Positions 4,372 through 24,747 of a stretch of 32,000 nucleotides of DNA are shown here, one piece after another. Origin of the DNA: Prochlorococcus sp. MIT 0801 (GTDB lineage Bacteria; Cyanobacteriota; Cyanobacteriia; PCC-6307; Cyanobiaceae). The notes beneath the pieces were generated by a model. The model ran no database searches and was not told the origin of the DNA. It worked only from the letters and a program-made list of their open reading frames with translations. The stretch lies in contig NZ_CP007754.1 of NCBI RefSeq assembly GCF_000757865.1, forward strand, positions 1,170,001 to 1,202,000, in the 5' to 3' direction. Each line of letters starts with the position of its first letter. The stretch's first letter is position 1. Both the position numbers and the translations under genes were made by a program.

Positions 4372-5598
4372 AATTTGGATTGCCATCCCTAGAACAATAG
4401 ATATGGCAACTAATTTATAAGGCTTTATGGATTGTTTAAAACTAAGGATTAGACTTATAAAAAAGATTAGACTATAAATACAAGTTTGAAAGATATCTTT
4501 GCCAACGATAACCTTACCCGTCATAGGTATGACTACAGCAAGAATTGCACCCGGTATGCCTGATAACACTCCATTAATATAGTTATCTATCATCACTTTA
4601 TTTTTGATTCTTTTTATTAAAGGTTCCCCTAAAAGAATAAATATAAAACTTGGTAAAAATATCGCGAATGTTGAGATGAGGGAGAAAAATGTTCCTAAAA
4701 GAATAGTTCCTTCTTTTGCTCCAACTTGAAAGCCTATAAATGCACTTGAAAGAACTACTGGCCCTGGAGAGAGTTGACCGATGGCTATAGCATCAATAAA
4801 ACTACGACTATCTAACCAACCCATCTCAATTACTTGGGTTTGTAGGAGTGGAACAATTACTAACCCTCCACCAAAAACCAGTAAACCTGCTTTAAAGAAT
4901 ACATAAAATAACTTCAAAGAGTTCGATAATAAATTGCCTATATCCTCTCGAAATATTGGAGCTGTTAAAAAACTTGGAAAACCAAATAATTTTAGATCGA
5001 AATAAGAATGCTCAAAGCCATAAGGAATAAAGAAAAAGCTCAGGAATCTCTTAGAATTACTTTGATAGATTCCGAAAATTCCAGCCAACAATAAAAGCAA
5101 TGTGATAGGTAGATGTAGTGAAGTTGATCGATCAATAATTGACCCAATAAATACAAAACTAGCCGTTGTCCATTGCCATACTTGACTACGATTTTTTAAT
5201 AGGTTTAAAGCAAACCCCCAAATTATTGAAATTACAATTATTTGAGGAATAGACAAAAAATCTGAAAAATTATCAATTGATTGTCCTTGTCTCCAAAGTT
5301 GACTCATAAGTAAAATGATGAAAAATCCAGGCAATAAAAAACATATCCCACTTATTAATCCTCCATAAAAACCCTTTATCTTTGTCCCTAAAAAGATTGC
5401 TAATTGACTTGATGTCGGCCCAGGTAGTATTTCGCAAATACCCAATCCTTCGTCAAACTCTTGCTCGGAAACCCAATTCCTTTGAATGATGATCTCGTCT
5501 TTAAACATTGCAATATGCGCATATGGGCCGCCAAAACTAAAGACTCCTATTTTCAGAAAAGTTGAACTCAGTTCAGAAAATGTTGGGCTCACTATCAC
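4360..5598 (-). CDS. chrA: Chromate-transporter family protein (ChrA, duplicated CHR domains)
   Basis: 412 aa, polytopic. Both halves carry the CHR motif context: FGGPYAHIAM...ILPGPTSSQL and FGGGLVIVPLL...GQLSPGPVV. Confidence 0.85.
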   Translation of the reverse strand: MIVSPTFSELSSTFLKIGVFSFGGPYAHIAMFKDEIIIQRNWVSEQEFDEGLGICEILPGPTSSQLAIFLGTKIKGFYGGLISGICFLLPGFFIILLMSQLWRQGQSIDNFSDFLSIPQIIVISIIWGFALNLLKNRSQVWQWTTASFVFIGSIIDRSTSLHLPITLLLLLAGIFGIYQSNSKRFLSFFFIPYGFEHSYFDLKLFGFPSFLTAPIFREDIGNLLSNSLKLFYVFFKAGLLVFGGGLVIVPLLQTQVIEMGWLDSRSFIDAIAIGQLSPGPVVLSSAFIGFQVGAKEGTILLGTFFSLISTFAIFLPSFIFILLGEPLIKRIKNKVMIDNYINGVLSGIPGAILAVVIPMTGKVIVGKDIFQTCIYSLIFFISLILSFKQSIKPYKLVAISIVLGMAIQILFL

Positions 5599-5649
5599 TA
5601 AACAAATATCCTATAGAAAAAGATAAGGTAATCTTTTGGTATAAGAATA

Positions 5650-6912
5650 TTAGGCTTTTTCAATAGCTATAGCACTTGAAACTGGTGGTAGTCGTAAACT
5701 AGTCAACAATGAGAGAAATACAAATAGGCTTGAACACCATAAACATAGTTGCATTCCTATAGAGGCATTAGTTCCAAGCATAAATAGGACACCAGATAAG
5801 AGCGTACCAATCAGTCTTCCTGCCGCATTTGCCATGTAATAGAAGCCGACGTTTAGGCTCACGTTTTCCTTGTCCGTATAAGCAAGAACCATATAGGAAT
5901 GTATTGATGAGTTCATTGCAAAAATGAACCCAAATAATATCAATCCAGCTGTAATTGCTATTTCTGGATTGCTTTGTCGCCATAGTGCTATTGCTATTAG
6001 CGCAGGTATCGCAGTTAAGACAGCACTCCAAAATTGAACAGAAGAAACTCCTGGACTTGTTTTCTTTCCCCATAAATTTCTTAAAGACGGTGCAAAAGCT
6101 TGGATAAAGCCATAACCAATAACCCACAAGCCTAGGAACGCTCCAATCTCAGAAAAATTCCAATTTAGATACGTTTCAAGAAAAACAGGAAGTGCTACGA
6201 CGAACCATACATCTCTTGCCCCAAAGAGAAAAAAACGTGCAAAAGAGAGGACGTTGATCCCTTGAGATTTAGAGAATAAGTCTTTAAAGATGGGTTTGCT
6301 TTTCATCTTTCCAATATCTCCAGGCAAAATCAATGTCAATAGAAACGAAACACCTAATCCGATAGCCATTAATTCAACTGCTTTATTAAAACCAAAACTG
6401 GTCAGCAACAATCCACCAAGAAAGAAGCCAACTCCTTTGAGTGCATTTTTTGAACCAGTTAAGATAGCTACCCATTTAAATAATTGATTATTTCCACCAT
6501 CTTCTTCTGAGGAGTCTGGAACGACAGTTTTGATGGCACTTTTAGCACTCATCTTATTGAGATCTTTTGCTATACCACTAATCGCTTGAGCAACCATGAC
6601 ATAAATGACACTCAAAAGTTTCGACCAACCACTCGAAACTGGTATCAACATCAATAAGGCACCGATTTGTAAAAGAGTCCCGACCCATAATGTTAGACGT
6701 AATCCATATCTTGCTCCAATCCATCCACCATAGAGATTAGTGATAACGCCAAAGAACTCGTAAAAAAGGAATAAGAATGCGATTTCTAACGTTGTATATC
6801 CAAGGCTATGAAAGTGAAAAATCACTAGCATCCTTAGAGCACCATCTGTCAGTGTGAATGCCCAATAGTTGGTCGTTACGATTCCATATTGTTGCAATGC
6901 CGTTAATCGCAT
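5650..6912 (-). CDS. arsJ: MFS transporter of the ArsJ type (organoarsenical / 1-arseno-3-phosphoglycerate efflux)
   Basis: 420-aa protein with about 12 TM helices, lying 10 nt downstream of a GAPDH gene on the same strand. This is the characteristic gapdh-arsJ pairing, and it is under a divergent arsR. Confidence 0.75.
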   Translation of the reverse strand: MRLTALQQYGIVTTNYWAFTLTDGALRMLVIFHFHSLGYTTLEIAFLFLFYEFFGVITNLYGGWIGARYGLRLTLWVGTLLQIGALLMLIPVSSGWSKLLSVIYVMVAQAISGIAKDLNKMSAKSAIKTVVPDSSEEDGGNNQLFKWVAILTGSKNALKGVGFFLGGLLLTSFGFNKAVELMAIGLGVSFLLTLILPGDIGKMKSKPIFKDLFSKSQGINVLSFARFFLFGARDVWFVVALPVFLETYLNWNFSEIGAFLGLWVIGYGFIQAFAPSLRNLWGKKTSPGVSSVQFWSAVLTAIPALIAIALWRQSNPEIAITAGLILFGFIFAMNSSIHSYMVLAYTDKENVSLNVGFYYMANAAGRLIGTLLSGVLFMLGTNASIGMQLCLWCSSLFVFLSLLTSLRLPPVSSAIAIEKA

Positions 6913-6922
6913 GTTTTTATTT

Positions 6923-7948
6923 TTATTCTTTTTCTAGCTTGATTACATGTGATACGAGATCAGCCATTCGACAGCTATACCCCCATTCATTGTCATACCA
7001 AATATAGACTTTCAGTTGAGTTTTGTTGATCACCATGGTTGAGGGCGCATCAATAATTGAACTTCTCGAGTCATTGACATAATCGATTGATACAAGTGGT
7101 TTTTCTTCGTAACCAAGTATTCCTTTTAGTTCTCCTTCTGAAGCTTCTTTGAACACATGATTGACTTCTTCTTGCGTGACCTCTTTTTCTAATTCAAATA
7201 CAGCATCAGTTAAAGATCCATTGAGGAGAGGAACTCGAACTGCATGACCATTTAATTTACCTTGTAATTCAGGGAATATCATCCCTATCGCTTTTGCTGA
7301 TCCTGTTGTTGTTGGAATTAAGCTTTGTGATCCGCTCCTTGCTCTTCTTAAATCTGATTTAAATGAATCAACGATTACCTGTGTATTTGTTAGGTCATGG
7401 AGTGTTGTGATGCTTCCATGCTTGATACCAAAAGCTTGATTAACAACTTTCACAACGGGAGCCAAGCAATTAGTCGTGCAGGATGCAGCTGTTACTAAGC
7501 GATGTTTATTGGGCTCATATAAATCATGATTAATACCGTAGACGATATTTAGAGCATCCTCTCCCTGGATTTCTCCTTTTACTGGACATGCAACGACAAC
7601 TCTTTTCATCCCAAGAGTATCGAAATAAGGATTTAATGTTTGAGGGGTTTTGAATTTCCCTGAGCATTCGAGAATTAACTCTGTACCTTTTTCCTTCCAT
7701 GGCACTTTTGTGAAATCACTTTCTTGTGAAAAAGATATTGGGTGACCTTCAATATTCAGGTTGTTTTGATCGTTGCTTATTGCTTTGTTCCAACGACCAT
7801 GAACTGAGTCATATTCAAGTAAATGCGCAGCTCCCTTTGCATCACCCAATGGATCGTTGATATGCGTAATCTCTATATTTTCTCTACCCCAGAGTGCCCT
7901 AAGAACAAGTCGTCCTATACGACCAAAACCATTAATACCAATGCGCAT
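6923..7948 (-). CDS. gap1: Glyceraldehyde-3-phosphate dehydrogenase, ars-associated paralogue
   Basis: A start at the ATG 7946-7948 gives the canonical N-terminus [13 protein letters not shown]. The tracked upstream extension [11 protein letters not shown] is unlikely. The active site [10 protein letters not shown] is present, and the C-terminus reads WYDNEWGYS. Confidence 0.9.
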
Positions 7949-10250: not shown

Positions 10251-10340
10251 AATGTCTTATTTAAAAGTATGCACATGTGACAGTTAAGAGACTCATCTAC
10301 TGATACTTGAGACATCTAGATTTTTCAAATAGTTTTAATT

Positions 10341-10434
10341 TGTGAGGAGTAGAGATCCTCCGCAGTGGAAACAAGGAAACACTTGCGCCTGATCTCACAA
10401 TCAAACCGCCCTAACAGAACTGGGCGGTTTTTTT
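10341..10434 (+). ncRNA. Candidate small RNA ending in a strong intrinsic terminator
   Basis: Terminator AACCGCCC (10404-10411) / GGGCGGTT (10422-10429) followed by a T-run. Upstream there is GTGAG...CTCAC long-range pairing and a GAGGA/TCCTC hairpin. An AT-rich -10-like TTTAAT lies at 10334-10339. No ORF is present. Confidence 0.3.
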
Positions 10435-10809: not shown

Positions 10810-10882
10810 ATATGATTGGCGACTCTTAATACAAACGCCTAACATATTGCGACCTAATATCTAATTATTAGCTAGTAAAAAC

Positions 10883-11030
10883 AAGCAAAGAGAGCCGGAC
10901 TTCCCGTAGTAACGACTCTTCCTTGCTTGGCTTGGTGACCACTGCTTAGATTGGTACTTTGCATTTTGATTATGGGTAAGGAAGATTAATTAATGGATAA
11001 TCAATACTTAATTCATAGTTAAGCTAGCGT
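10883..11030 (-). repeat. 148-nt repeat copy A: orphan 3'UTR-plus-terminator module
   Basis: About 93% identical over the first about 135 nt to 13649-13796 in the same orientation. On the minus strand it ends in the hairpin AAGCAAGGAAGAG...CTCTCTTTGCTT followed by GTTTTT. It retains a relic of the last codons and stop of a gene that is no longer present. Confidence 0.85.
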
Positions 11031-13284: not shown

Positions 13285-13648
13285 TATTTAATCAGCCATC
13301 CATCAGAACATAGCACTCGTTTCATTAGCTTCAGGTATTAAAGATTACACAGGTTATTGAGATATTCTGATAAGTTAAAAATGGCTGGTGATTTGCGTGA
13401 ACAGATTACCAGCTTGTAGCCTTACTACTTGCAATAGCTAAAAGTGGATAGGTGATTTCGACTACACGAAAAAATCTGAAAAAATGCTAGAAAATAACAT
13501 AATTAAATTCTTATAATGAAACCACTTGCAGACAGTAATCATCTTCAACAAGTATTAGCTCAGATTCAATTAAACATAATCAGAACTAAAGATCAAAAGA
13601 TGTCTCATCATCTCTGGTATCAGAAATCAATGTGTGATGGAGAAAAAT

Positions 13649-13796
13649 AAGCAAAGAGAGCCGGACTTCCCGTAGTAACGACTCCTCCTTGCTTAGCTTG
13701 GTGACCACTGCTTAGATTGGTACCTTGCTTTTTGATTATGGCTAAGGAAGATTAATTACTGGATAAGCAATACTTAATTCGCAGTTAAGTCAGCAT
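13649..13796 (-). repeat. 148-nt repeat copy B: 3'UTR and terminator of the 81-aa gene
   Basis: Paralogue of 10883-11030. It begins at the last four codons and stop of ORF 13785-14030. It ends in the minus-strand hairpin AAGCAAGGAGGAG...CTCTCTTTGCTT followed by ATTTTT. Confidence 0.85.
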
Positions 13797-14030
13797 TGTA
13801 TTTTTTTGATATTTGCTAACTATCTCGGTAACTTCCTCACCATGAATCCAGCGAATTTCGCCAGAATCTACGTTGGCAATTTGAAAGAGTGAGGGTGCAT
13901 CAGTATCACGAGAGCCTCCAACAAAAGTAAGAACTTTTCCAATTTGGTCCTTTTCATAAAGAACAGCGTCACCGCATTTAACTTTTAAAAATAAAGGCTC
14001 TTCAACTAATTCTTCATCGCTATAGCCCAA
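13785..14030 (-). CDS. Hypothetical protein (81 aa) downstream of ligase-like gene 1
   Basis: ORF overlapping the end of the upstream ligase-like gene by 25 nt. No family recognised. Confidence 0.45.
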   Translation of the reverse strand: MGYSDEELVEEPLFLKVKCGDAVLYEKDQIGKVLTFVGGSRDTDAPSLFQIANVDSGEIRWIHGEEVTEIVSKYQKNTMLT

Positions 14031-14791
14031 TTAGGTGCTTTTGAATTTACTCCAAGTCTCTTCTTTGTTTTCCCAAAATTAACTTTGACGACTATTCCAT
14101 CAGTTGGGAGATTTTCGAAAAGTTCACCAGCAAGCCATTCTTTATGCCATCTCTTAACTTGGAGAGGATCAGCAGTTCTATTAGTTGGCGGAATTTCAAA
14201 GAACCATGATTCTAATTTTTTTATATCTTCAATTTCATCTGCAGTACTTCCAAGAATTTCATACGCCACAAAACTAAGACCAGCACCAGTTGGGTTTTTC
14301 TTTCTTAGGTGTCCTCCAGCCAAAGCTTGGGATTTAGTTCTAGAAAGATTTGGCCCATAGAGTTCGCCACGGATCTCAAGTGGTTCTTCTGAAACTGCAA
14401 TTCCATCTTCTGGAAGTTCCACAGGAAGATTGCAAATAGTTCTAGCCGCTTCAAGTACATCTTTTCCACTTCTAGTGAATGCTGCTACTAAGGTTCCAGA
14501 TTGGTATCGAAGACCTAAAGCACAGCCATCAAATTTTGGTTGAACAATCATGGTTTCATTTCTGGCTTTCTCTGCCCACCATTCGCTAAAGCAATAATTA
14601 TCCAAACTAAGTAACTTCATTTTCTGCTGGAAATATGAATTCTGAGGATCAATTTCCTTAAGCCTATTTTCTAACTGATCAAATTGCTTGTCACTTACTT
14701 GAGCATTGCCCGATCTGTAGGCCACATCTAGCTTTTCGACCAAGCCAGAAAGTTCTTTTGCCCACGTTTTGCCCACGCTATTATTTCCCAT
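14006..14791 (-). CDS. Stand-alone NAD-dependent-DNA-ligase-type adenylation domain protein (domain Ia plus nucleotidyltransferase only), copy 1
   Basis: The start is taken at ATG 14789-14791 (MGNNSVGKTW...). The tracked N-terminal 32 aa (..GSTRSQVRILSPR..) is read-through of the tRNA fragment. LigA motifs are present: domain Ia YRSGNAQVSDKQFDQLENRLKEI, motif I QPKFDGCAL (KxDG), motif III IRGELY, motif IV DGIVVKV and motif V NWAIAMK. At 261 aa it has no OB, Zn-finger, HhH or BRCT domains. Confidence 0.7.
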   Translation of the reverse strand: MGNNSVGKTWAKELSGLVEKLDVAYRSGNAQVSDKQFDQLENRLKEIDPQNSYFQQKMKLLSLDNYCFSEWWAEKARNETMIVQPKFDGCALGLRYQSGTLVAAFTRSGKDVLEAARTICNLPVELPEDGIAVSEEPLEIRGELYGPNLSRTKSQALAGGHLRKKNPTGAGLSFVAYEILGSTADEIEDIKKLESWFFEIPPTNRTADPLQVKRWHKEWLAGELFENLPTDGIVVKVNFGKTKKRLGVNSKAPNWAIAMKN

Positions 14792-14879
14792 TAAAAAAGA
14801 CAGGCTGGGAAACCTGTCTCTGACTGATCGGGGCGACAGGATTCGAACCTGCGACCTAGTGCTCCCAAAGCAATCGGTT
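14789..14879 (-). repeat. att repeat 1: 3' 44 nt of tRNA-Pro(UGG) (14828-14871) plus its terminator; not an intact tRNA
   Basis: The reverse complement reads GC-TTTGGGA-GCACT-AGGTC-GCAGG-TTCGAAT-CCTGT-CGCCCCG-A. This gives the anticodon loop with UGG, the variable loop, the T-arm, the 3' acceptor strand and discriminator A. The hairpin AGACAGG/CCTGTCT plus T6 follows. No 5' acceptor strand (CGGGGCG) or D-arm lies upstream. It is 88/91 identical to 24511-24601. Confidence 0.85.
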
Positions 14880-14991
14880 GTACACATGAGACTGGTATAA
14901 AGATCTAATCCCTGACTAAAAATATTCTAGCTATTGTAATGAGTTTGAGACTAACAATTGAAATGAATATCTATTTGTTTTAACTTGTATT

Positions 14992-15018
14992 TACTCAGGA
15001 GATCCCGCTGAGATCCCG
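14992..15018 (+). promoter_or_regulatory. Arm-type repeat, left arm of element 1 (just upstream of int1)
   Basis: TACTCAGGAGATCCCGCTGAGATCCCG contains a tandem GAGATCCC-gct-GAGATCCC. The same 27-mer, with 2 mismatches, recurs at 24472-24498 at the opposite end of the element. Confidence 0.55.
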
Positions 15019-15038
15019 CTTTAAAGACTTCATCCTTA

Positions 15039-16424
15039 ATGAAAGCTCGTTCAGAAGCACCAGATTGGGTTCAAAGCATGAGGATCTTTCTTAGGGGGGA
15101 GGTTGGAGCAAACTGGCAGGTCACAACAAAAGGCAGGAGAAGGGCTTGTTTAGGTGTCAGGTTTGACGATGGAACGAGAGTCTTTAAAAATCTCCCTGTC
15201 TTATGGGAGAGGGCACAGCAAGCGAAGATCCAAGAGCTTGTTCTTGAAGTACATGAATTAGTGGTCAAGAAAAAGATATGCGGACTAGACGAAGCTATTG
15301 ATCGAATCAACAAAGCCAATACAGAAGTTCCTAGTGCAGCAGACAGGGCAAATCCAATGCTTCTTCTTGCCGCATGGGAAAAATACGAACACTACAAGGT
15401 GAAACAAAAAGGGGATGTCACTCAAGCGAATTGGAATAAAGAATATGGAGGGAGACCAAATACAAAAATCAACCCTCCAAGGCCAAAGGACAAAGGGAAA
15501 ACATATTTAAGGTTTAAGCAAATAGTGAAAACGGCTACCAATGCTAATGAACTATTAATCCAAATTGGTGACTACGAAGATAAAAATAAAAAGCCCGAAC
15601 CTATTAAGCCTTTAGAAGCTGGAAGTCGTAGCAGGCAAATCAGAGTTCAACATGTTGCAGCTTTTTTAAGATGGGCAACTTCAAAAAAATCAGGTTATTT
15701 ACTAAATCCAGAGAATTGGTCTGCGCCACCAAGGAATGCAATCGATGATTACGTAGGAGTTAAGTCAGCCAAGAAAAAGAAAGAAACTTCTAGTCCAACA
15801 GTTGCGATTGAAGATGACGATCTTTTAGCGCTATTAGGCTCACTACCCATAGACATAGACAAAGAAGAGAAAAGGCATCGATTAAGAGATCGTGCAATGG
15901 AGTGGGACTTTGCTCTAAAGCTTGCAATTACTTATGGCCTACGTCCTGAGGAAGTACGACATGAGCATCTAACGATCAAAAAGAATGACAAGGAATATAT
16001 GTTCTGCACCTATTGCAAAAAGTCTGGGGGAGGTATTACCAGGCCTCGCAGACTATGGCCGATCCATCCCGAATGGGAGAAGAAATGGCATTTATTGGAA
16101 CGTATTAAAAAGAGAGATCCTTTACCAAGAATGAAAGCTGGTGCAGGTGATGCATTTAGGAATTACCTACGTTTTAATGAGGTCTGGAAAAAATTAAAAT
16201 CAGATGTAGGTGTTGTGCCCTACAGCTTTAGACATTCCTATAGCAAGCGGGCACATCAAATTTACAAATTAAGTGATACAGAAGTTGCAGCTTTTATGGG
16301 TCACAGTGTCCCTGTACATAACGCTCGCTATGCTCAGTGGAGCACCGAAACTATGCTAGAAAGATCAATGGAACGTGCTATAAAATTCAGGAACATCCTC
16401 GAGGGTTCGCAAGTGGTCAATTAA
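15039..16424 (+). CDS. int: Tyrosine recombinase / integrase 1
   Basis: 461 aa. The catalytic signature is GLRPEEV (Arg I), FRHSYSKRA (HxxR) and MGHSVPVHNARYAQW (His/Tyr nucleophile). It lies about 160 nt from the att repeat. Confidence 0.9.
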   Translation: MKARSEAPDWVQSMRIFLRGEVGANWQVTTKGRRRACLGVRFDDGTRVFKNLPVLWERAQQAKIQELVLEVHELVVKKKICGLDEAIDRINKANTEVPSAADRANPMLLLAAWEKYEHYKVKQKGDVTQANWNKEYGGRPNTKINPPRPKDKGKTYLRFKQIVKTATNANELLIQIGDYEDKNKKPEPIKPLEAGSRSRQIRVQHVAAFLRWATSKKSGYLLNPENWSAPPRNAIDDYVGVKSAKKKKETSSPTVAIEDDDLLALLGSLPIDIDKEEKRHRLRDRAMEWDFALKLAITYGLRPEEVRHEHLTIKKNDKEYMFCTYCKKSGGGITRPRRLWPIHPEWEKKWHLLERIKKRDPLPRMKAGAGDAFRNYLRFNEVWKKLKSDVGVVPYSFRHSYSKRAHQIYKLSDTEVAAFMGHSVPVHNARYAQWSTETMLERSMERAIKFRNILEGSQVVN

Positions 16425-16819
16425 TCTAAATCAACTCTTTTAACTGTTGGTTTTACTTCTAGTTGTCCTTGACTAAGTTTAAAAAGATTCGCATAGGAAA
16501 TAGATTCTTCATCTCCAATTGATTTAATTTGTTCAATTGTTCTAAGAAGTTTTTCTTTAAATTCTTCAGCTTCAGATTTACTACTACAAATACGAAAGAT
16601 GTCATTATGGATTAAAACTCCCCATTGTTTTTTTATTGTTGTATGTGCATCTGCAGGGTCTTTCCGATAAGGAACAAGTCTCCCATTGATTTTCCAATTA
16701 CCTTCCTGAGAGTCTTCAATGATCAGTGATTCAATATTAGAGTTATATGAAGTAATAACTTTGTCCGCATGATCCGACCAATACCTTCGAGAATAGATAG
16801 GAGTAACTTGAATAGTCAT
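16421..16819 (-). CDS. Hypothetical protein (132 aa), convergent with int1
   Basis: Clean ORF whose 3' end overlaps the int1 stop by 4 nt. No family recognised. Confidence 0.45.
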   Translation of the reverse strand: MTIQVTPIYSRRYWSDHADKVITSYNSNIESLIIEDSQEGNWKINGRLVPYRKDPADAHTTIKKQWGVLIHNDIFRICSSKSEAEEFKEKLLRTIEQIKSIGDEESISYANLFKLSQGQLEVKPTVKRVDLD

Positions 16820-17150
16820 GTCTTTAATCCTTTTATTAGTTATTTTTGAGGTTAGAGAAAAAGACTTCCAACAAACATTAATTATTTAACAATTCACATT
16901 TCAAAAATCATAGTTTGATCGATTGAGACATAGCTACTTCTTTCTCATGCACAATCTAACTAAAAATAATTTGTAGATAATAGGTTGCACTTTTCTATAG
17001 ATGTGGATACTCTCCCACTAATAGAGAAGGCACGTTTTTGAGCTAAATCGGACAAAGCTTTTAGTTGCAACGCTAACTAAGACACCGAACTCAAATAGCA
17101 GAGCTAGCGGAAAGCCCTCACCAAATAATAATCTTTACCACTAATGAATA

Positions 17151-17375
17151 ATGTCCACGTCCCAATGGGTATCGACTTCTAATGCTGCAAAGGCCTTAGG
17201 ACTTAATCCTGTAACTCTTCTCCGAAAAAGAGTACAGCTAGAAAAAGATGGTTTCTTAAAACCCAACATCCATTACATAAGAACAGGGCAAACGAAGAAT
17301 TGCTCTTATTTATGGAAATTAGATGCACTTGAGGAATTACTCAGCAAATGGAAAGCTCCTAAGAGGTCCATCTAA
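17151..17375 (+). CDS. Small HTH DNA-binding protein (excisionase/AlpA-like)
   Basis: 74 aa. WVSTSNAAKALGLNPVTLLRKRV is a helix-turn-helix of the MerR/excisionase type. Its stop overlaps the next ATG (TAATG at 17373-17377). Confidence 0.6.
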   Translation: MSTSQWVSTSNAAKALGLNPVTLLRKRVQLEKDGFLKPNIHYIRTGQTKNCSYLWKLDALEELLSKWKAPKRSI

Positions 17376-19225
17376 TGAAAAATACATCTATCAATAAAGC
17401 ACCAACACAAGCGAAGTCGGACGACTTTACAAAAGAGTGGTCCAACAAAAGAGAATGTACTTTTAGTCATTTCAAGCAGTGGTGTAGAGAAGCCGAATAC
17501 TTAGTGCTATCAAACTATGAAGATCTAGATGCATTTAAAGGTGAAGAGATTCTTGAACCCATAAGTATTGAAAAACTATTCGAAAATGACTTCGAACCAC
17601 CAAGAGTTGGATCAGCCTATAAAAAATATTGTCGACTTGAATCTCAATATTATTTATTTGATTTAGACCACCCTGACTATCTAGGAAATTATTGGAATCT
17701 AATTGGTTTACTTTGGGGAGCACTACAAACTCATCAAGACCCTTATTTTCATAAGTGGAATTATCGAATGAAGTGCAATATCCAAGAAGCAAAGGCGTCT
17801 GGGGAAGATTATTCCATTTACGAAAGGATGATTCATCTAAACGACGTCGCAGAAATTGAGCCTATTGAAGAATTTGAAGCGCGCTTACTTCTAATAAAAA
17901 TGAAAGCTGGTGTGGTTTATAGACTTATTGAGGGAAAAGACAAGCCAGATATAGAGGATTATTTAACACCCATGGAACATATCAAGTGGCTCAAAACAAA
18001 TCACGTTCCACTAAATCCACCCTCAATAACAACAAAAACAGAAGACTCTTTAACGATCTTAGAGAAAGGTTGGAATGAGATAAAACTACTCCCTAGACCT
18101 AGTCAAAGGCGTTTAGGACTAAAGCAGCTACAAAAAGAGTTGAAGATGAATCCCAAAGAGCTCAGCTCTCTTATTTATGAATTGCAAGTGGAGAAGTCAT
18201 CTAAGAATCAAAAACTAAACAACTTCAATGCTGTCATGTCAGGTGAGTTCAACCAGAAGACACTTGTAGATAATTTCATCATGAGCGGGACAGTATCCAT
18301 GCTTGCAGGGGACGGGGGCTCAGGTAAAACCTCGTTGCTCTATCAAACAGCAGAGTCAGTTACGACAGGTAAGCCATTATTTGGAAGACTCACTACTAAG
18401 AAAAGAAAATGTCTATTAATCCAAGGTGATGAGAGTCACGTTAATGCACAAACAAAATGGAAAAGGATGAACTTGCAACCCGATCCAGCTCAATGGGAAT
18501 TGTGTTGGAAATGGACTGCAAGCCAACTTCCAGACCTAAGACAGTGGATTGATAACAATGGTTTTGGCCTTGTCCAAATGGATTCTTTTGGAGTTTTATT
18601 TGGTGGTAATGAGGCTATGAATGATGCTGAAATTGGACTCTACATGTATGAACTAAACAGTATTGCCGCGGATACTGGAGCAGCAATTGTGGTAAATCAT
18701 CATCTAAAAAAAAGGACACATAAGAATACTAAGGAGGCAGCGAAATGGAAACCATCTTTAGGAGACTTCTTTGGTTCGTCATACATCGTTAATGGAATTA
18801 GAGATGCTTGGGGTTTATGGAAAAAAGGAGAACATCTTGATGGATCGCCCATCTATGGATTGAAGTATCTCAAAGATAATTCTGGATTAATAGAAAATGG
18901 CTTTGTTATGAACCTACTAGGATCTGAAGAATCCTATAGATACTCTCTATTTGGTGACGAGGGTGGAGTTAAAGAGCTCGACGTTCGTAACACTATTCGT
19001 AGTCAACTTCATTCAGGACTTAAATCAAAAGCAGGGGAATGGCTACCATTTACAACTCTAAAAACCTTTACGCCTAAAGCAGATGACAGATCAATAAAAA
19101 GAGAATTAGCAAATTTATTTACTCATGCTGCTGCTACAGGTATAGAACGTAGACCAATTGAATCAGGACACGTTGGACGTCCCAAGTATGAATACCGTTT
19201 TGCAATATGCGGGGTGTGTGATTAA
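17375..19225 (+). CDS. Replication protein: about 300-aa N-terminal domain of unknown type plus a RepA/DnaB-like RecA-fold P-loop ATPase (AAA_25-like)
   Basis: Walker A MLAGDGGSGKTSLLYQ is present. LLIQGDES and Walker B-like GLVQMDSF follow, then VVNHHLKK. This arrangement is typical of plasmid RepA / AAA_25 helicases. The gene is translationally coupled to the HTH gene. Confidence 0.7.
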   Translation: MKNTSINKAPTQAKSDDFTKEWSNKRECTFSHFKQWCREAEYLVLSNYEDLDAFKGEEILEPISIEKLFENDFEPPRVGSAYKKYCRLESQYYLFDLDHPDYLGNYWNLIGLLWGALQTHQDPYFHKWNYRMKCNIQEAKASGEDYSIYERMIHLNDVAEIEPIEEFEARLLLIKMKAGVVYRLIEGKDKPDIEDYLTPMEHIKWLKTNHVPLNPPSITTKTEDSLTILEKGWNEIKLLPRPSQRRLGLKQLQKELKMNPKELSSLIYELQVEKSSKNQKLNNFNAVMSGEFNQKTLVDNFIMSGTVSMLAGDGGSGKTSLLYQTAESVTTGKPLFGRLTTKKRKCLLIQGDESHVNAQTKWKRMNLQPDPAQWELCWKWTASQLPDLRQWIDNNGFGLVQMDSFGVLFGGNEAMNDAEIGLYMYELNSIAADTGAAIVVNHHLKKRTHKNTKEAAKWKPSLGDFFGSSYIVNGIRDAWGLWKKGEHLDGSPIYGLKYLKDNSGLIENGFVMNLLGSEESYRYSLFGDEGGVKELDVRNTIRSQLHSGLKSKAGEWLPFTTLKTFTPKADDRSIKRELANLFTHAAATGIERRPIESGHVGRPKYEYRFAICGVCD

Positions 19226-19422
19226 TGTCATAAATTAAAAATGTCATCCCCAAATACGTTCCAGTGCAATAGAAGAGAAAGATACAATAATAATAAATGA
19301 CAAAAAACTAACACCCCACAAGTGCTTGCTGGTTCGTACAAATTAAAAGTGTAGACACATAAATTAAATGATTTTTTCTAACTTAAAAACCCTAAAATAA
19401 CTACAGAAAAATTTCTAGCACT

Positions 19423-19581
19423 GTGAGATTCGAAAGAGAACTGGAACGTCTACGTCAACGGGTACAACAGATATCGATTGAACAAGCACCACCGACTCTT
19501 CGTATGGTGATGATTAAAGATGAAATAATTCCAATAGATCTAACCGTATGGGATTTACCCATAACAGTGGAGAGTAAATAA
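19423..19581 (+). CDS. Possible 52-aa ORF abutting the next gene (below the ORF-track cutoff)
   Basis: GTG start. The translation is RFERELERLRQRVQQISIEQAPPTLRMVMIKDEIIPIDLTVWDLPITVESK*. The stop is immediately followed by the ATG at 19582. Confidence 0.25.
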   Translation: MRFERELERLRQRVQQISIEQAPPTLRMVMIKDEIIPIDLTVWDLPITVESK

Positions 19582-20028
19582 ATGACTTTGACTGATTTCG
19601 AACCAAGAAGAAAAGGAAGACCTTCTATAGAAGAGATACCTCTGCCTCCTCACGTACAAAGAGCACTTGTTCTCAGAGGCAATGGATCGTCATGGAAAGA
19701 TGCTGCTGAATCAGTAGGGATGGATTATCGAACACTCAGGAAATACGTCAGAGATCATCCTGATGCAAATGAGTTCCTGGAACGTCAAACACAAGACGCT
19801 TTAGATCAAAGCCATAGCAAACTCATTGCTGCAGCACCTGCAGCGGCACAAAGATTAATCGATGTAATTAATGACGAGGGCAATAGAGGTTATGTAGTTG
19901 TTCAAGCTGTTGAGAGTTTATTTAGGATTATTGATCGAGGTATTACAGATCGAGAGAACGCTGAGCAACTCAAAGAGATTAGAAACTCTATAAATGCTCT
20001 TGAAGGTGGAAAGATAATTAATGTCTGA
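19582..20028 (+). CDS. HTH-domain protein resembling a phage small-terminase subunit or regulator
   Basis: 148 aa. RKGRPSIEE...GSSWKDAAESVGMDYRTLRKYVRDHPDANEFLERQ is followed by a helical coiled region. This layout is common in TerS proteins. The functional call is tentative. Confidence 0.4.
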   Translation: MTLTDFEPRRKGRPSIEEIPLPPHVQRALVLRGNGSSWKDAAESVGMDYRTLRKYVRDHPDANEFLERQTQDALDQSHSKLIAAAPAAAQRLIDVINDEGNRGYVVVQAVESLFRIIDRGITDRENAEQLKEIRNSINALEGGKIINV

Positions 20029-20063
20029 ATGGCCTAGATAAGCTAGAAAGGTAGAAAGAAGTA

Positions 20064-21293
20064 ATGATGTTTATGCAACTAAGGCTATTACTCTTTCTTT
20101 CTCTTCTACCCTCAATATTCTTCATAGAAGCTAAGTCCTTTGGAGTATTAAGTGATAACTGCAATGCGAACAAATACACACCAGCTGAATTATTTAAATC
20201 GAAAGTAAATTCCGTCGTTGTTATCACCTCTGAAGGAAGTCAAGGGAGTGGATTTGTAGTTGAAAGACGCAAAGGTCATTCTTATATACTTACCAATGCT
20301 CATGTTGTCGGTAATAAAAAACGAGTAGACGTTAAATGGAATGATGGAGAAGTTGATCGAGCAGAAGTAGTTGGGAACTTGGGGGGGGATAAACTTGAGA
20401 GAGATCTTGCATTAATTAAAGTCGCTGGAACGAAAGGAACACCAATAAAACTTAGTAAAAATTCGCCAGAAGTTGGTTCTGATGTCGTCGTGATTGGAGC
20501 ACCTAGTGGTCTCGAATTTAGTCTGACAAGAGGTGTTGTTAGTCAAATTAGAGATCGAGAGAATTTTGTCCAAATTGATGCCCCTGTAAATCCTGGCAAC
20601 AGCGGTGGTCCTGTATTTAATAATGGTGGATGTGCGATTGGTGTTGTTACCTTCAAATCTGGTGAAGGGACAGAGGGACTCAACTTTGCTATCGGGAATA
20701 AGCAAATAACAAAGTTTTTAAAAAATCCAATTATTGATGAAGAGGCAATTAATAAACAAACACTTGCGAATCTCCCATTACCACCAAAATCAATTGAAGG
20801 ACCATTCCCGCCTTTTGAATTTGAATATGGAGAAACTTACAGTCAAATACAAGTTAACAAAGGGAATAAAGAATGGACTACTCTCACTGTAACAACTGAA
20901 TTGTCACCTAATAGAGAGCCAAAAACAAATCGATTAATGATAGAAAATAAATCCATCAGAAAAGATGAAGACTGGTTTTCTGTAAAAGCTATAAGAAACG
21001 CCCTATCAACCTTTGCCGAGGTCACCGTTCAAAAAACAGGTCAAAAAGTTTATCTCTCTGGTTCCTACCCTTTTGAAAGAAAAATCAATTGCAAAGATCA
21101 AATAGTTCAGCATGGTCCAACAACTTATAAAGGGAGAACAACGGGACCAACTAACTATTACAAAGTTGGTCCAGGCTGGTTTATGACAAAGTACGAGATC
21201 AAAAAAGGCAAATTAGTTGATCTGCCCGGGAACAGCAAAGAAGTCGATCAAATGGAAAACGCTGCTTTGTTTAATTATTTTTGCAAAGGCTAA
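20064..21293 (+). CDS. Secreted trypsin-like (S1C/HtrA-type) serine protease with a non-PDZ C-terminal domain of unknown function
   Basis: A signal peptide is present. The catalytic triad context is TNAHVV (His), RDLALIKV (Asp) and GNSGGPVF (Ser). The last about 190 aa contains no recognisable PDZ domain. Confidence 0.85.
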   Translation: MMFMQLRLLLFLSLLPSIFFIEAKSFGVLSDNCNANKYTPAELFKSKVNSVVVITSEGSQGSGFVVERRKGHSYILTNAHVVGNKKRVDVKWNDGEVDRAEVVGNLGGDKLERDLALIKVAGTKGTPIKLSKNSPEVGSDVVVIGAPSGLEFSLTRGVVSQIRDRENFVQIDAPVNPGNSGGPVFNNGGCAIGVVTFKSGEGTEGLNFAIGNKQITKFLKNPIIDEEAINKQTLANLPLPPKSIEGPFPPFEFEYGETYSQIQVNKGNKEWTTLTVTTELSPNREPKTNRLMIENKSIRKDEDWFSVKAIRNALSTFAEVTVQKTGQKVYLSGSYPFERKINCKDQIVQHGPTTYKGRTTGPTNYYKVGPGWFMTKYEIKKGKLVDLPGNSKEVDQMENAALFNYFCKG

Positions 21294-21344
21294 AAACCAA
21301 AATATTCACAAAGGACACATACCACAATCCTTCAAAAACTTCAC

Positions 21345-21470
21345 ATGAAATCTCAGGAATTATCTGCTGAAGAACAAGCTCTCTGGAATGAGGTTGAAGA
21401 AAGAATTGATCGTAATTTGAAAAAAGAATTATTTGAGAGGCTTAAAGAGTATGGTTTGAAAATTGAATAA
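21345..21470 (+). CDS. Possible 41-aa helical peptide (below the ORF-track cutoff)
   Basis: Manual translation gives MKSQELSAEEQALWNEVEERIDRNLKKELFERLKEYGLKIE*. Confidence 0.2.
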   Translation: MKSQELSAEEQALWNEVEERIDRNLKKELFERLKEYGLKIE

Positions 21471-21550
21471 GTTTTTATGTGATATTTGTTTTAACTAGAT
21501 CAGCTAGAAAGGTATAGAGATCTATATTCCTCATACAGAAAGAGTCCTAA

Positions 21551-22753
21551 ATGAAGCCAGACTTACGAATCACTGATCCTGATGATTTCGAGAAAGTCGT
21601 AGCAAGACAATGTATGACTTTGGGCTACGAAGTCGTAATGCCAACAAAAAACAATCCCGGATACGACATTGAATTAATTAAAGGGAAAGAAAGAATCGCT
21701 GTACAAGTTAAATGTCATAAAGCAAAGCAAAACACAGGTCAATACAAAAAGTTTGTTGCTTTTTTAGAACTTCCAATAGCTTCAAATTTCACTAGTGGAT
21801 GGTTTATCTCGCAAAGTGGATATAGCAAAAATGTTTTAGCTCTTGCTGAAGCAGATCGAGAGCCAAATCTAAAGCTAGGAACTTCCTCACAAAGAGGAAT
21901 CAAATGGAATTATGACCCTGATTTAGCCCCAGGAGAAAGCCCTGAAGAAGAGAAAGAAGAGGATATAGAGGAAAAGAATGTAAAAGATGAAGCAGTCAAA
22001 TATTTTGGAATTTTCACTTGTAAAGGAGGTGTTGGGAAAACGACTGTTGCAGCTCATCTGGCTGGTGCATTCGCAATAATGGGTTATGACGTAATCCTGC
22101 TAGATCTTGATCCTGACAGGAATTTGAGGAAATTGTTTCTTCAAGATCAGGACTCTGATGAAGATGCTTCTTTGTATATCCCCCCCAATAAAAAAGGTTT
22201 TTCAGGAGCAACAATCACTGTCTTAAATGCCGACGAATGGGATGAAAGGTCATATTCCGAAAAAGTCGTTATTTGTGATTGCTCTCCTGTCCTTTCCGAA
22301 AATCCTAAGTATCTAATAAGAAAATTTGATTATTGCGTAATACCCACAACCCTTAATCCTCTTGGTATCGCAAAGAATGGCGATGTGATCACAAGAACTT
22401 TCAAACATATTAGAAAAATGAATAACAAGGCTGAAATGTTTTGTTTGATCAACTCATATAGCGGAGCTCAATCATACGAAGAAAGAAATAAACATCTATT
22501 AGCCTTGGTTGAAAAGCCAATCAAGGAATATCAAAAGAACGATCCAAAATGTCAACTTATACATCCTGATTATGTGAAGATTAGAGAAAGTAGAGCTCTT
22601 CGATATTGGGGGTATCACCTTGTCGATGGATCTCCACCTCAATTAGCTTTCAAATCTGTTGCTAATAGAAGTGCTCCAAGAACTGACTTCATGCAATTAG
22701 CAGAATATTTAGAGGATCACACCTCAATCACTTCAACAAGAGAACTTGATTAA
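21551..22753 (+). CDS. Fusion protein: N-terminal Mrr-like PD-(D/E)xK nuclease domain plus C-terminal ParA/MinD-type deviant Walker A ATPase
   Basis: The N-terminal sequence ...GYDIELIKGKERIAVQVKCHK gives a D...E-x-K core as in Mrr_cat. An acidic linker follows (PEEEKEEDIEEKNVKDE). Then GIFTCKGGVGKTTVAAHLAGAFAIMGYDVILLDLDPD gives the KGGxGKT deviant Walker A and Walker A' region. Confidence 0.75.
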   Translation: MKPDLRITDPDDFEKVVARQCMTLGYEVVMPTKNNPGYDIELIKGKERIAVQVKCHKAKQNTGQYKKFVAFLELPIASNFTSGWFISQSGYSKNVLALAEADREPNLKLGTSSQRGIKWNYDPDLAPGESPEEEKEEDIEEKNVKDEAVKYFGIFTCKGGVGKTTVAAHLAGAFAIMGYDVILLDLDPDRNLRKLFLQDQDSDEDASLYIPPNKKGFSGATITVLNADEWDERSYSEKVVICDCSPVLSENPKYLIRKFDYCVIPTTLNPLGIAKNGDVITRTFKHIRKMNNKAEMFCLINSYSGAQSYEERNKHLLALVEKPIKEYQKNDPKCQLIHPDYVKIRESRALRYWGYHLVDGSPPQLAFKSVANRSAPRTDFMQLAEYLEDHTSITSTRELD

Positions 22754-22809
22754 GGGTTAATGAGAAAAGAATTTCTCTTACCAGTCGACCTAACTGCAAG
22801 GAACTATTA

Positions 22810-23013
22810 ATGCAAAAAATGCTAATCACAGTAGGACTACTGATCGCATCAATAGGTGTTCTATATCCTTACTTAAAACGAATAGGGTTAGGACGATTGC
22901 CTGGGGACATCATTATTCGAAGTGAAAACTCATCTTTTTATTTTCCAGTAGTTAGCTGTATTGCCATCAGCCTGCTTCTTTCAGTCATTTTTAATTTATT
23001 TCGATCCTCCTAA
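22810..23013 (+). CDS. DUF2905-like small membrane protein
   Basis: 67 aa with two TM helices flanking GLGRLPGDIIIRSEN, the characteristic (K/R)LPGDI motif. Confidence 0.55.
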   Translation: MQKMLITVGLLIASIGVLYPYLKRIGLGRLPGDIIIRSENSSFYFPVVSCIAISLLLSVIFNLFRSS

Positions 23014-23201
23014 TGAGTTTCGCTGATAACTGGGCCAGGGTTTTTGTTGTGATTACTTTTCTAACTTTTGGAGAAGCTCAGATCATTGGTGGCATCGTTC
23101 CGAACCTTATTGCTTTTAGCTTGTTTCTTGGAGCAATTGGATACTTTGCTTTAACTGGAAAAATGGCTGAGATGTTTGGTATTAAAAAACGGCCCAAATA
23201 A
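23013..23201 (+). CDS. Small two-TM membrane protein (62 aa)
   Basis: The start overlaps the previous stop (TAATG). The protein is hydrophobic with a basic C-terminus. Confidence 0.4.
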   Translation: MSFADNWARVFVVITFLTFGEAQIIGGIVPNLIAFSLFLGAIGYFALTGKMAEMFGIKKRPK

Positions 23202-23263
23202 GATTATTCCTCCACCGTTTGACCGCCGATTGCTATCGAAAACGCAGGAATGAAATGACTCAG

Positions 23264-23416
23264 TCAATCCTTATTATCAAATTCTTCTTCTTTCTGGATT
23301 TTAATTTCAACTCTCATATTCATTCCTAAAAAAACAATGATGACTCCTATTACCGGAAGCCAAAGGCCAAATTGTTTTGATTCAGCTGCTGCTTGATTAA
23401 AAATATCAGGAGTCAT
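23264..23416 (-). CDS. Possible 50-aa single-TM peptide (below the ORF-track cutoff)
   Basis: Manual translation gives MTPDIFNQAAAESKQFGLWLPVIGVIIVFLGMNMRVEIKIQKEEEFDNKD*. Its ATG overlaps the stop of the upstream small ORF (TAATG). Confidence 0.3.
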   Translation of the reverse strand: MTPDIFNQAAAESKQFGLWLPVIGVIIVFLGMNMRVEIKIQKEEEFDNKD

Positions 23417-23574
23417 TATTGATTAACACTCCATTTATCTTGATAAGGAAGTTGGTAATCCTCTTTATTCATAGGAATCCAACTCCAATCAACGCAAATG
23501 GTTATTTGATAACCAATTACATATAAAGCAAGCATTGCATTGAATAAATTTATGTGTTGAACGGGAGCATCCAT
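23416..23574 (-). CDS. Possible 52-aa peptide (below the ORF-track cutoff)
   Basis: Manual translation gives MDAPVQHINLFNAMLALYVIGYQITICVDWSWIPMNKEDYQLPYQDKWSVNQ*. It is coupled to the ORF at 23264-23416. Confidence 0.3.
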   Translation of the reverse strand: MDAPVQHINLFNAMLALYVIGYQITICVDWSWIPMNKEDYQLPYQDKWSVNQ

Positions 23575-23758
23575 AATTATCACTAAAAAATTTCACTAAA
23601 TATTCTCACAGAAGATAAGAATGTAGTTGACGGAAAATACTACACAAATTCATCCGTCGGGAGGCCACCTCGAAAGTTACTTGATGTTAATTGGAAGACT
23701 TTTTGCATCTTTCATCTCGATTTTCGTTAAAAATCAAATTCAAATATATTTTTCTTCA

Positions 23759-24064
23759 ATGGCTCTTTTTAAACTTGACTGGGCATTTCCTACTCAGGAA
23801 TCATCATTTGCAGGAGGAGAAAAATTTCTTGAATATCTTGAAGCTGGTGGTCCAGCTGACGAAACTGAAGGTTTTAAAATTCTTTGGCGTGTAACCAACC
23901 CACTTAATGGAACAGGTAGCTTCGTCGCTGAAGCAACTGATATCAGCAAGATGTGGGAACACGCTGCTCCTTGGATCAAAGGGTTTGGATGTATGTGCGA
24001 AGTAGAGGCTGTGTTCTCAGACGAGCAATTTGTTACTACTGCGAAAAAAATCTACGCATCTTAA
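23759..24064 (+). CDS. Hypothetical soluble protein (101 aa from ATG 23759)
   Basis: The tracked ORF starts at TTG 23627. The ATG at 23759 (MALFKLDWAFP...) is the more plausible start. It is followed by a strong terminator. Confidence 0.5.
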   Translation: MALFKLDWAFPTQESSFAGGEKFLEYLEAGGPADETEGFKILWRVTNPLNGTGSFVAEATDISKMWEHAAPWIKGFGCMCEVEAVFSDEQFVTTAKKIYAS

Positions 24065-24109
24065 ATAATTGACTTATCTATAGTTGAAATCATTTTTGGA
24101 TGAATACTC

Positions 24110-24136
24110 AGGACTGACTTAGCTCAGTCCTTTTTT
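24110..24136 (+). terminator. Rho-independent terminator
   Basis: AGGACTGA (24110-24117) / TCAGTCCT (24124-24131) form an 8-bp perfect stem with a 6-nt loop, followed by a T-run. Confidence 0.75.
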
Positions 24137-24137
24137 A

Positions 24138-24275
24138 TTAGTTGGCCATCATATAAAAAAGGAATCCTGCAAGAATAGTTAGCTTTGCACCAATGCCGTA
24201 TGCAATTATTTTTCCAAATTTTGATCCTCTGGAATAATCAGACCAATGATTATCAGCCTTATTACTTGAAGTCAT
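24138..24275 (-). CDS. Possible 45-aa membrane peptide (below the ORF-track cutoff)
   Basis: Manual translation gives MTSSNKADNHWSDYSRGSKFGKIIAYGIGAKLTILAGFLFYMMAN*. Confidence 0.3.
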   Translation of the reverse strand: MTSSNKADNHWSDYSRGSKFGKIIAYGIGAKLTILAGFLFYMMAN

Positions 24276-24471
24276 TTCTAATTAGAGAAAAGGTTTAGCG
24301 AGAAAAGGAAGTTGCTATGCAGTACACCTTCCTTAACTCTCATTGGATCAATGCTCACTGATAACCAATGTTCAAGGAACATAACTAGAAATTCATTATT
24401 CCTCTAGGCCGGTTGAGGTAGGGCTAACCAACACAGAGAGGTCAAAACCATTGCCACTAAAGACAAGTAAC

Positions 24472-24498
24472 TACTCGGGAGATCCCGCTGAGATCCCA
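24472..24498 (+). promoter_or_regulatory. Arm-type repeat, right arm of element 1
   Basis: TACTCGGGAGATCCCGCTGAGATCCCA matches 14992-15018 at 25/27 positions. It runs directly into the terminal inverted repeat CCAGTCTCAT (24496-24505). Confidence 0.55.
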
Positions 24499-24510
24499 GT
24501 CTCATTTTTG

Positions 24511-24601
24511 CATTAAAAAAGACAGGCTGGGGAACCTGTCTCTGACTGATCGGGGCGACAGGATTCGAACCTGCGACCTAGTGCTCCCAAAGCGATAGGT
24601 T
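24511..24601 (-). repeat. att repeat 2: 3' 44 nt of tRNA-Pro(UGG) (24550-24593) plus its terminator; not an intact tRNA
   Basis: 88/91 identical to 14789-14879 in the same orientation. The sequence to its right (the tRNA 5' side) has no D-arm or CGGGGCG acceptor strand. Confidence 0.85.
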
Positions 24602-24714: not shown

Positions 24715-24747
24715 ATAATATACCTAGTGCCTACAACGTTTTGATAA

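Follow-up and report, generated by a model that had tools for sequence, protein, structure and literature searches.

How can an integrase find the ends of its own element when the elements beside it occupy the same attachment site? The question is raised by a 32,000-nucleotide (nt) stretch of the Prochlorococcus sp. MIT 0801 genome (contig NZ_CP007754.1, positions 1,170,001 to 1,202,000 of the forward strand), which we analyzed over its full length and refer to as the window. The window contains a 9.6-kb integrative element (element 1; 14880-24505, plus strand) with a tyrosine recombinase gene, int1, at its left end, and a second element (element 2) with its own integrase gene, int2; partial copies of one proline transfer RNA (tRNA-Pro) gene flank element 1 on both sides. 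Prochlorococcus genomic islands gain genes through tycheposons and related phages, and tandem tycheposons at tRNA-Pro(tgg), with only partial tRNAs between them, are described in the preprint text of Hackl et al. (bioRxiv 10.1101/2020.12.28.424599). Comparing the ends of element 1 with those of related elements, we consider it likely that element 1 uses a tRNA-Pro attachment site (attP), that Int1 is a heterobivalent tyrosine integrase, and that tandem pairs of the unit GAGATCCC in both arms of this site are its predicted arm-type sites.

Ends and attachment site of element 1

Element 1 is bounded by a 96-nt direct repeat whose copies, at 14784-14879 and 24506-24601, are 95% identical. The repeat comprises a terminator and the 3' half of a minus-strand tRNA-Pro(UGG), and it ends in the anticodon loop (anticodon TGG). 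Core copy 1 (minus strand), with the terminator hairpin at 14800-14819 and the tRNA 3' half at 14828-14871, represents attL of element 1, and core copy 2 (minus strand) represents both attR of element 1 and attL of element 2. Because ARAGORN found no whole tRNA gene anywhere in the window, both repeat copies are taken as tRNA fragments. Over its 44 nt of tRNA sequence, the core shows 100% identity to the 3' half of an intact tRNA-Pro(tgg) gene present at the right end of a related element, L061.

With tRNA-Pro(UGG) 3' halves on both sides, relatives in Prochlorococcus genomes, a site-specific tyrosine recombinase (Int1) and a replication module, element 1 is, by these sequence features, a tycheposon-like integrative element in tRNA-Pro(UGG) of a Prochlorococcus genomic island. 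The replication module is represented by a primase/helicase-like open reading frame (ORF; 17375-19225) that matches AAA_25 and PHROG primase/helicase families. According to the text of the preprint cited above (bioRxiv 10.1101/2020.12.28.424599), tycheposons are integrated at one of seven island tRNAs and flanked by a partial tRNA, and the attachment site is given there as a partial tRNA of about 40 nt only. The cargo of element 1 includes an Mrr_cat-type restriction endonuclease fused to a ParA/MinD-type ATPase (21551-22753) and a secreted trypsin-like peptidase (20064-21293), for both of which defence or accessory functions are possible.

Each arm of element 1 holds a tandem pair, GAGATCCC-gct-GAGATCCC, with an 11-bp period. 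The P' arm pair (14999-15017, plus strand) lies 21 nt upstream of the int1 ATG, and the P arm pair (24479-24497, plus strand) lies at the right end of the element and is oriented like the left pair. The P arm pair ends 13 nt before the shared 91-nt core (CATTAAAAAAG at 24511), the looser 96-nt repeat beginning at 24506. In the 32 kb, GAGATCCC occurs exactly four times (14999, 15010, 24479 and 24490), a count reached by 0 of 100 shuffles (mean, 0.73), and the spaced pattern GAGNNNCCNNNGAGNNNCC is present in only two places, the arm pairs of element 1, against an expectation of 0. An initial annotation of this DNA, made from the letters alone, had proposed a reconstructable attP in which duplicated arm motifs and a 10-bp terminal inverted repeat flank the tRNA core. 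A search of the window located all of its motifs where it had placed them; the block TACTC(A/G)GGAGATCCCGCTGAGATCCC is present in both arms (14992-15017 and 24472-24497) as claimed, but is 26 nt long and not 27. Similarity around this block stretches to 31 nt at 90% (14987-15017 and 24467-24497).

In joined form, attP of element 1 would consist of the right end (~24467-24505), the 96-nt core and the left end (14880-15038). Strand exchange probably takes place at the anticodon stem-loop, because the identity between the att copies ends there, and the units would then lie about 100 bp (P arm) and about 142 bp (P' arm) from the crossover.

Arm pairs in related elements

The comparison set comprised about 60 related loci (denoted by L-numbers) from Prochlorococcus genomes, marine metagenomes and phage contigs, all chosen through the integrase. 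L003-L008, in which the right end was absent within 10 kb, contributed left arms only, and L063 and L064, whose pairs are degenerate and in which tRNA-Pro sequence could not be recognised upstream of int, were excluded. Relatives of int1 were found in Prochlorococcus genomes and in marine metagenomes. All seven genome loci with an int1-family start (L002-L008) have a tRNA-Pro fragment about 165 nt upstream of int.

A pair upstream of int is present in nearly all int1 relatives with upstream sequence (36-98% identity). The exceptions are L028, L029 and L032, in which the pair is degenerate, and L031, in which an upstream arm pair was looked for and none was detected. The common layout consists of two 8-10-nt units with an 11-12-bp period, about 20 nt before the int start. 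In the genome loci, where the period is 11 bp, the units are GAGATCCC in L002, GAGCTCCC in L003 (Prochlorococcus MIT 1307) and GAGGGCCC in L004-L008; metagenome relatives (43-96% identity) carry GAGGGACC, AGATCCCCC, TAGCGCCCC, TAGCTACCC, TAGCTCCCC and TAGAGCCCC, to which GAGAGTGCAA and AGCTACCCC were added later. The unit sequence is element-specific, the two copies of a pair always carry identical changes, and most units fit (G/T)AG-NNN-CC(C), the centre being variable. Conservation at the ends of related elements, which the initial annotation had named as the check on its motifs, holds for the layout of the pair but not for the sequence of the unit, which varies between elements.

Aligned with L002, positions 14927-15018 of the window differ at 2 of 92 positions, and the remaining arm differs at 16 of 67. 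The closest int1 relative is also found in L002 (10001-10380); it has 98% identity over residues 1-127 and an in-frame TAG at codon 21. Homology to the window stops after about residue 127; this is a decayed copy in which the left arm and its pair are intact.

Matching P and P' pairs, in the same orientation beside the core, were found for 10 distinct unit types in related elements. L050 has a TAGCGCCCC pair in both arms, L065 has a AGCTACCCC pair in both arms, and two integrase-less remnants in the L007 array have TAGCTCCCC and AGCGCCCC, respectively, in both arms. In L061, paired GAGAGTGCAA units stand at 9567 and 19102, 9.5 kb apart, with the right pair 27 nt from the whole tRNA-Pro gene. 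A search of viral contigs with the integrase alignment returned only distant integrases (27-38% identical to int1 over the best aligned segment), yet the contigs in which the core was located have the identical 44-nt tRNA-Pro core with one pair on each side, built from the units CTAGATTAC, CTAGGATAC, GATGTGCGCT, TTATGCGC, TTGTGTACA and TTGTGTAG. These pairs stand at fixed offsets, the right-hand one abutting the int start, and the same unit occurs in both arms of L009, L011-L014, L017 and L020-L024. The terminase, portal and head genes of L013, one of these contigs, mark it as a true phage.

The arms of one element co-vary. The longest string common to P and P' inside one element is 10-21 nt, compared with 5-9 nt for nearly all mismatched P/P' combinations, elements sharing a unit excepted; three unrelated combinations reach 11 nt, roughly what chance would give over so many comparisons. 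At the array junctions in the window, L007, L002, L065, L010 and L016, different units flank one and the same core. Because the two sides of one core differ in this way, the pairs belong to the elements and not to the host site. The pairs of element 1 thus have properties expected of arm sites, being repeated on both arms, distinct from the core and element-borne, not host-borne.

Further units are found directly left of core copy 1, where two copies of TTTTGCCCACG with an 11-bp period (14756-14777, plus strand) overlap the 5' end of a minus-strand ligase-like ORF. Units related to TTTTGCCCACG lie beside tRNA-Pro cores elsewhere (TTTGCCCACG in L003; TTGCCCACA in the viral contigs L010 and L016), and the TTTTGCCCACG pair is probably the right-arm pair of a third, older element. 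In L007 (1025-9835), three tRNA-Pro fragments separate the two integrase-less remnants, of about 4.5 and 4.1 kb, both of which keep both arms; one of them has lost one unit of the left pair together with the integrase gene. To judge from their sequence, the L007 remnants are stranded elements that are no longer able to excise alone.

The joined site of a relative was observed directly. The L065 element, whose integrase is a 36%-identical relative of Int1, recurs in two Tara metagenome contigs (L066 and L067) with its ends connected, right to left, by a single core copy, and the junction is 96-99% identical to both L065 ends. The contigs could derive from an excised circle or from a tandem of the same element. 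In either form, a reconstructable attP with arm motifs, as the initial annotation had proposed for element 1, is seen in a relative.

Element 2 provides the neighbour with which element 1 shares its core. Its integrase, int2 (24748-25965, plus strand), is a 405-amino-acid (aa) tyrosine recombinase that shares 24% identity with int1 and 27% with the integrase of phage contig L013. A P' arm pair, TTTTTCCCAA-g-TTTTTCCCAA, with an 11-bp period (24695-24715, plus strand; copies at 24695 and 24706), lies 32 nt upstream of int2. It has the layout of the int1 pair in an unrelated sequence, and its position aligns with the pairs of phage contigs L009-L022. The left arm of element 2 also contains GCTATAACT at 24609 and 24628, and CTTTCTAATA at 24656 and 24666 with a partial third copy. 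The presence of GCTATAACT, CTTTCTAATA and TTTTTCCCAA agrees with the earlier observation that element 2 has different short repeats in the equivalent place. The accompanying proposal, that different integrases share the tRNA-Pro core and use different arms, is supported in that int2-type and phage-type elements carry unrelated units at the same positions.

Two other motifs were noticed around int2. The paired GCTATAACT (24609-24617 and 24628-24636) is common to phage contigs L009, L011 and L013 despite an integrase identity of 27%, and int1 relatives such as L037 and L061 have its reverse complement, AGTTATAGC, in their left arms; from this distribution, GCTATAACT/AGTTATAGC appears to be another constant arm motif. 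Between the arm pair and int2, ACCTAGTGC (24722-24730) duplicates the half-site of the tRNA core (variable loop and anticodon stem). It also stands just before the int ATG in L030, L037, L039-L041, L050 and L007, but not upstream of int1, and it may be an extra core-type integrase site for autoregulation.

Int1, its N-terminal domain and other readings of the pairs

Int1 (15039-16424, plus strand; 461 aa) consists of an N-terminal domain (residues 1-94), a linker (95-103), and core-binding and catalytic domains. Its AlphaFold2 model has a predicted local distance difference test (pLDDT) score of 82.8, and the linker is disordered in the model. The N-terminal domain, which reached a pLDDT of 84.7 when modelled alone, is predicted to contain a helix (9-22), three strands (26-31, 35-41 and 47-55) and two further helices (58-77 and 83-94). 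In a Foldseek search, the C-terminal two-thirds of Int1 matched the Tn1549 integrase, XerH and Cre (E-values of 7 × 10−5 to 7 × 10−3). Across 28 homologs, K327, R398, H399, H427 and Y431 are invariant, and R302 and H422 are nearly so. Int1 itself had no Pfam or PHROG match, and three of its homologs match Pfam Phage_integrase weakly. By fold and conserved residues, Int1 has the core-binding and catalytic domains of a tyrosine recombinase.

We then compared residues 24-56 in pairs of integrases with at least 85% identical catalytic domains. Mean identity over these residues was 96% when the unit was shared (n = 19) and 61% when it differed (n = 36). The N-terminal β-sheet region varies along with the unit, against 86-95% identity in the remainder of the protein. 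L003 and L004, for example, with GAGCTCCC and GAGGGCCC, are 93% identical in the core-binding domain, 94% in the catalytic domain and 50% over residues 24-56; for the window and L060, with GAGATCCC and GAGCTCCC, the corresponding values are 88%, 89% and 52%. Domain by domain, these integrases are mosaics.

Taken with the matching arms, this pattern suggests that arm-site specificity follows the integrase N-terminal domain, subject to several points that weigh on the other side. The integrase pairs compared are phylogenetically non-independent. The N-terminal strands of L040 and L041 are 94% identical although their units differ, and L040 and L050 share a unit although their strands are clearly different, so the relation is not one-to-one. 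The P' pair lies about 20 nt from the region encoding the N-terminal domain, and the co-variation could partly reflect linkage; the match of the P arm cannot be explained in this way, because the P arm is distant from that region. The N-terminal domain of Int1 had no significant match in the PDB (by Foldseek), in PDB sequences, in BFVD or among Pfam arm-binding families, and a comparison with residues 1-91 of lambda Int gave nothing significant. As for regulation of int1, a simple sigma-70 promoter and terminator scan of 14700-15100 found nothing.

The mechanism we favour would run as follows. The variable N-terminal domain of Int1 would bind the tandem GAGATCCC units, two per arm and one helical turn apart, and its core-binding and catalytic domains would act at the anticodon stem-loop. 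By binding both kinds of site, Int would bridge arms and core into an element-specific recombination complex. Since the unit is element-specific, the integrase could distinguish the ends of its own element from those of neighbouring elements with the same core. Int1 probably also represses its own gene, given that the P' pair lies only 21 nt before the int1 ATG; as the simple scan found no promoter-like site in 14700-15100, this autoregulation is a conjecture. "Lambda-type", the term used in the initial annotation, probably describes a way of working and not family membership, the latter being unsupported because the N-terminal domain has no detectable similarity to solved arm-binding domains.

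More tentatively, and as a possibility we hold at somewhat below even, the variable unit centres and the swappable N-terminal domain may form an address code. Dozens of different elements and phages could then occupy one tRNA-Pro site in tandem arrays, with each integrase excising only its own element. The source of new addresses would be a type of N-terminal domain, unrelated to known arm-binding domains, that is exchanged or diverges rapidly. If each element has its own arm sites, this would explain how elements share a tRNA, build up arrays and move independently, and how integrase-less remnants become stranded. The family is also a natural set of integrases with near-identical catalytic parts, one core and different pairings of N-terminal domain and arm site, in which the rules of arm recognition are directly testable and which could supply orthogonal integrases for engineering.

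The pairs could instead be bound by another protein of the element, such as an excisionase-like directionality factor or a repressor, that coordinates the ends or controls int, the N-terminal domain doing something else. We regard this as unlikely, though it is the strongest of the alternatives. Element 1 does encode small unannotated proteins, such as that of the 74-aa ORF 17151-17375, and the missing link between the N-terminal domain and known arm-binding domains, together with a co-variation that could be linkage, also speaks for such a factor. Tandem direct repeats one helical turn apart are typical of excisionase sites, as for lambda Xis, and the pairs would fit this description. Excisionase sites are, however, usually confined to one arm, unlike the sites here, which are on both. 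Moreover, cargo tycheposons, a capsid-carrying element and true phages all keep the layout although their genes differ greatly. No shared gene other than the integrase, through which the loci were chosen, is apparent in their gene lists, and family searches returned no match for the small ORFs of element 1.

A second alternative gives the left pair no function beyond that of an operator or promoter element of int1 and explains the right copy as a by-product, for example of gene conversion or imprecise excision, that plays no part in recombination. In its favour, the distance from the left pair to the int start is always 0-35 nt, and overlap of attL and promoter with autoregulation is common for tRNA-associated integrases (PMC2951348). 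Yet a by-product would hardly be fixed beside the core with a matching unit in 10 unit types, at up to about 9.5 kb from int, nor persist in remnants that have no integrase, and the simple scan found no promoter for the left pair to control. We consider this reading improbable. The mid-arm motif TTTGAGACT described below was also tried as a −35 box and dropped, an acceptable −10 being absent at 17 nt.

Besides the pairs favoured here as Int1 arm sites, the arms share a second, constant motif. In the window it is part of a 10-mer inverted repeat formed by ATGAGACTGG (14886-14895, plus strand) and CCAGTCTCAT (24496-24505, minus strand), the latter overlapping the last 2 nt of the P arm pair. ATGAGACTGG and its exact reverse complement are the only two matches in the window, even with one mismatch allowed. 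An inverted 10-mer shared by two random 25-nt stretches of the window has a probability of about 7 × 10−4 (an inverted 7-mer, about 3%), in line with the initial view that such a pair is improbable by chance. In an eight-locus alignment of close relatives, ATGAGAC, which lies 15 nt beyond the 44 nt of tRNA in the core, is invariant, as is a block containing a second TGAGACT motif in mid-arm, TTTGAGACT (14944-14952, plus strand), which also occurs in most more distant int1 relatives (metagenome loci; L061, L065 and L066). The left arm of L002 has ATGAGACTGT, matching 9 of 10 positions of the 10-mer. On the right, (T/G)TCT(C/A)A directly follows the pair in seven of eight tabulated int1-family right arms and in L065 and L066, and GTCTCA is the conserved part of the right member. 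The exact 10-mer symmetry is specific to the window: the core is not in general bracketed symmetrically, because in most relatives, L066 among them, the right arm instead contains a local palindrome, TTCTCA-n2-3-TGAGA. What remains of the proposed 10-bp terminal inverted repeat is the recurrence of TGAGAC on the left and (G/T)TCTCA on the right; these constant motifs, present in both arms, are probably sites for a shared accessory factor.

It is accordingly very improbable that the 10-mers act as terminal inverted repeats of the transposon type, marking where the element ends. The exact inverted 10-mer around the core, rare by chance, would suit such repeats, but no transposase is present, a tyrosine recombinase and tRNA att repeats taking its place. 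In addition, only 5-7 nt, the TGAGAC/GTCTCA part, are conserved, the closest relative matches at 9 of 10 positions, and the arrangement differs in relatives, most of which have the right-arm palindrome and two direct TGAGAC copies in the left arm.

That the motifs match by chance, or belong to a generic repeat spread over the genome and unrelated to integration, deserves next to no credence: two-copy short repeats are often fortuitous, and an 11-mer overlapping the unit also occurs beside the tRNA in the unrelated phage contigs L017 and L024, but four GAGATCCC copies were never reached by shuffles, the spaced pair was expected 0 times, the exact 19-mer GAGATCCCGCTGAGATCCC had no match in 2.9 million viral contigs, and the pair pattern in the roughly 60 loci is confined to element ends, which also speaks against the earlier proviso that the motifs might be common repeats apart from integrases. 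Replication iterons were rejected as well, there being only two copies per arm, which always flank att and are also present in true phages.

Surroundings of element 1 and known systems

Several other features of the window deserve mention. Element 2 carries a truncated ligase-like gene and a capsid-protease gene. Its minus-strand ORF 29593-31194 is a fusion of head-maturation protease and major capsid protein (PHROG family 617), as in L013, and because of this fusion we take element 2 to be a capsid-carrying element resembling phage-inducible chromosomal islands (PICI-like) or a phage remnant. The window stops short of the right end of element 2 and of the intact tRNA. A 613-nt inverted repeat (76% identical; 14008-14620 and 26112-26724) lies to the left of element 1 and just after int2. 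It consists of opposite-strand copies of a 254-261-aa gene for the adenylation domain alone of an NAD-dependent DNA ligase, and it could mediate inversion of the region between the copies.

To the left of element 1 and outside the intact elements, a 3.6-kb block (4360-7948) encodes a chromate transporter, a major facilitator superfamily transporter and GAPDH, and it is 86% identical to cargo inside the int1-family element of L004-L006. An Rfam Cyano-1 small RNA is found at 10336-10400 on the plus strand (64.7 bits; the gathering score is 41). Two direct-repeat copies of 152 nt (92% identical; 10877-11028 and 13643-13794) lie 2.8 kb apart, with a weaker third copy of 30 nt at 15740-15769, inside int1.

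Among known elements, the tycheposons of the preprint text (bioRxiv 10.1101/2020.12.28.424599) resemble element 1 in combining a tyrosine recombinase, a replication gene and cargo, and in having a capsid-carrying PICI-like neighbour. The preprint text, as searched, does not mention arm sites, end inverted repeats or an integrase N-terminal domain, and the top-ranked papers of a literature search covering arm-type sites, these cyanobacteria, their phages and tycheposons included no study of arm sites in these organisms. The integrase IntS of KplE1 (CPS-53) offers a parallel for regulation: its int gene lies beside a tRNA-derived attL, P' sites lie in the int upstream region, and the arm-type sites overlap the integrase promoter inside attL, which results in negative autoregulation (PMC2951348). 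It differs in organism and in integrase family, and no promoter was predicted upstream of int1.

The closest functional counterparts of the proposed arrangement are the integrases of lambda, L5 and Tn916/Tn1549. Lambda Int has the sites P1, P2 and P'1-3, mycobacteriophage L5 Int has arm-site pairs, and Tn916/Tn1549 Int has repeats. Common to them and element 1 are short repeated sites, unrelated to the core, on both attP arms about 80-145 bp from the crossover, and an integrase whose N-terminal domain stands apart on a flexible linker, which for Int1 is a prediction; the core-binding and catalytic domains of Int1 are, moreover, similar in fold to those of Tn1549 Int. Element 1 departs from these systems in three respects. 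The N-terminal domain of Int1 has no detectable similarity to known arm-binding domains, each arm has exactly two units, all in one orientation, and the unit is hypervariable among close relatives whereas the core and the remaining protein are constant. By analogy, the arm-site logic of element 1 would be functionally that of the lambda, L5 and Tn916/Tn1549 integrases.

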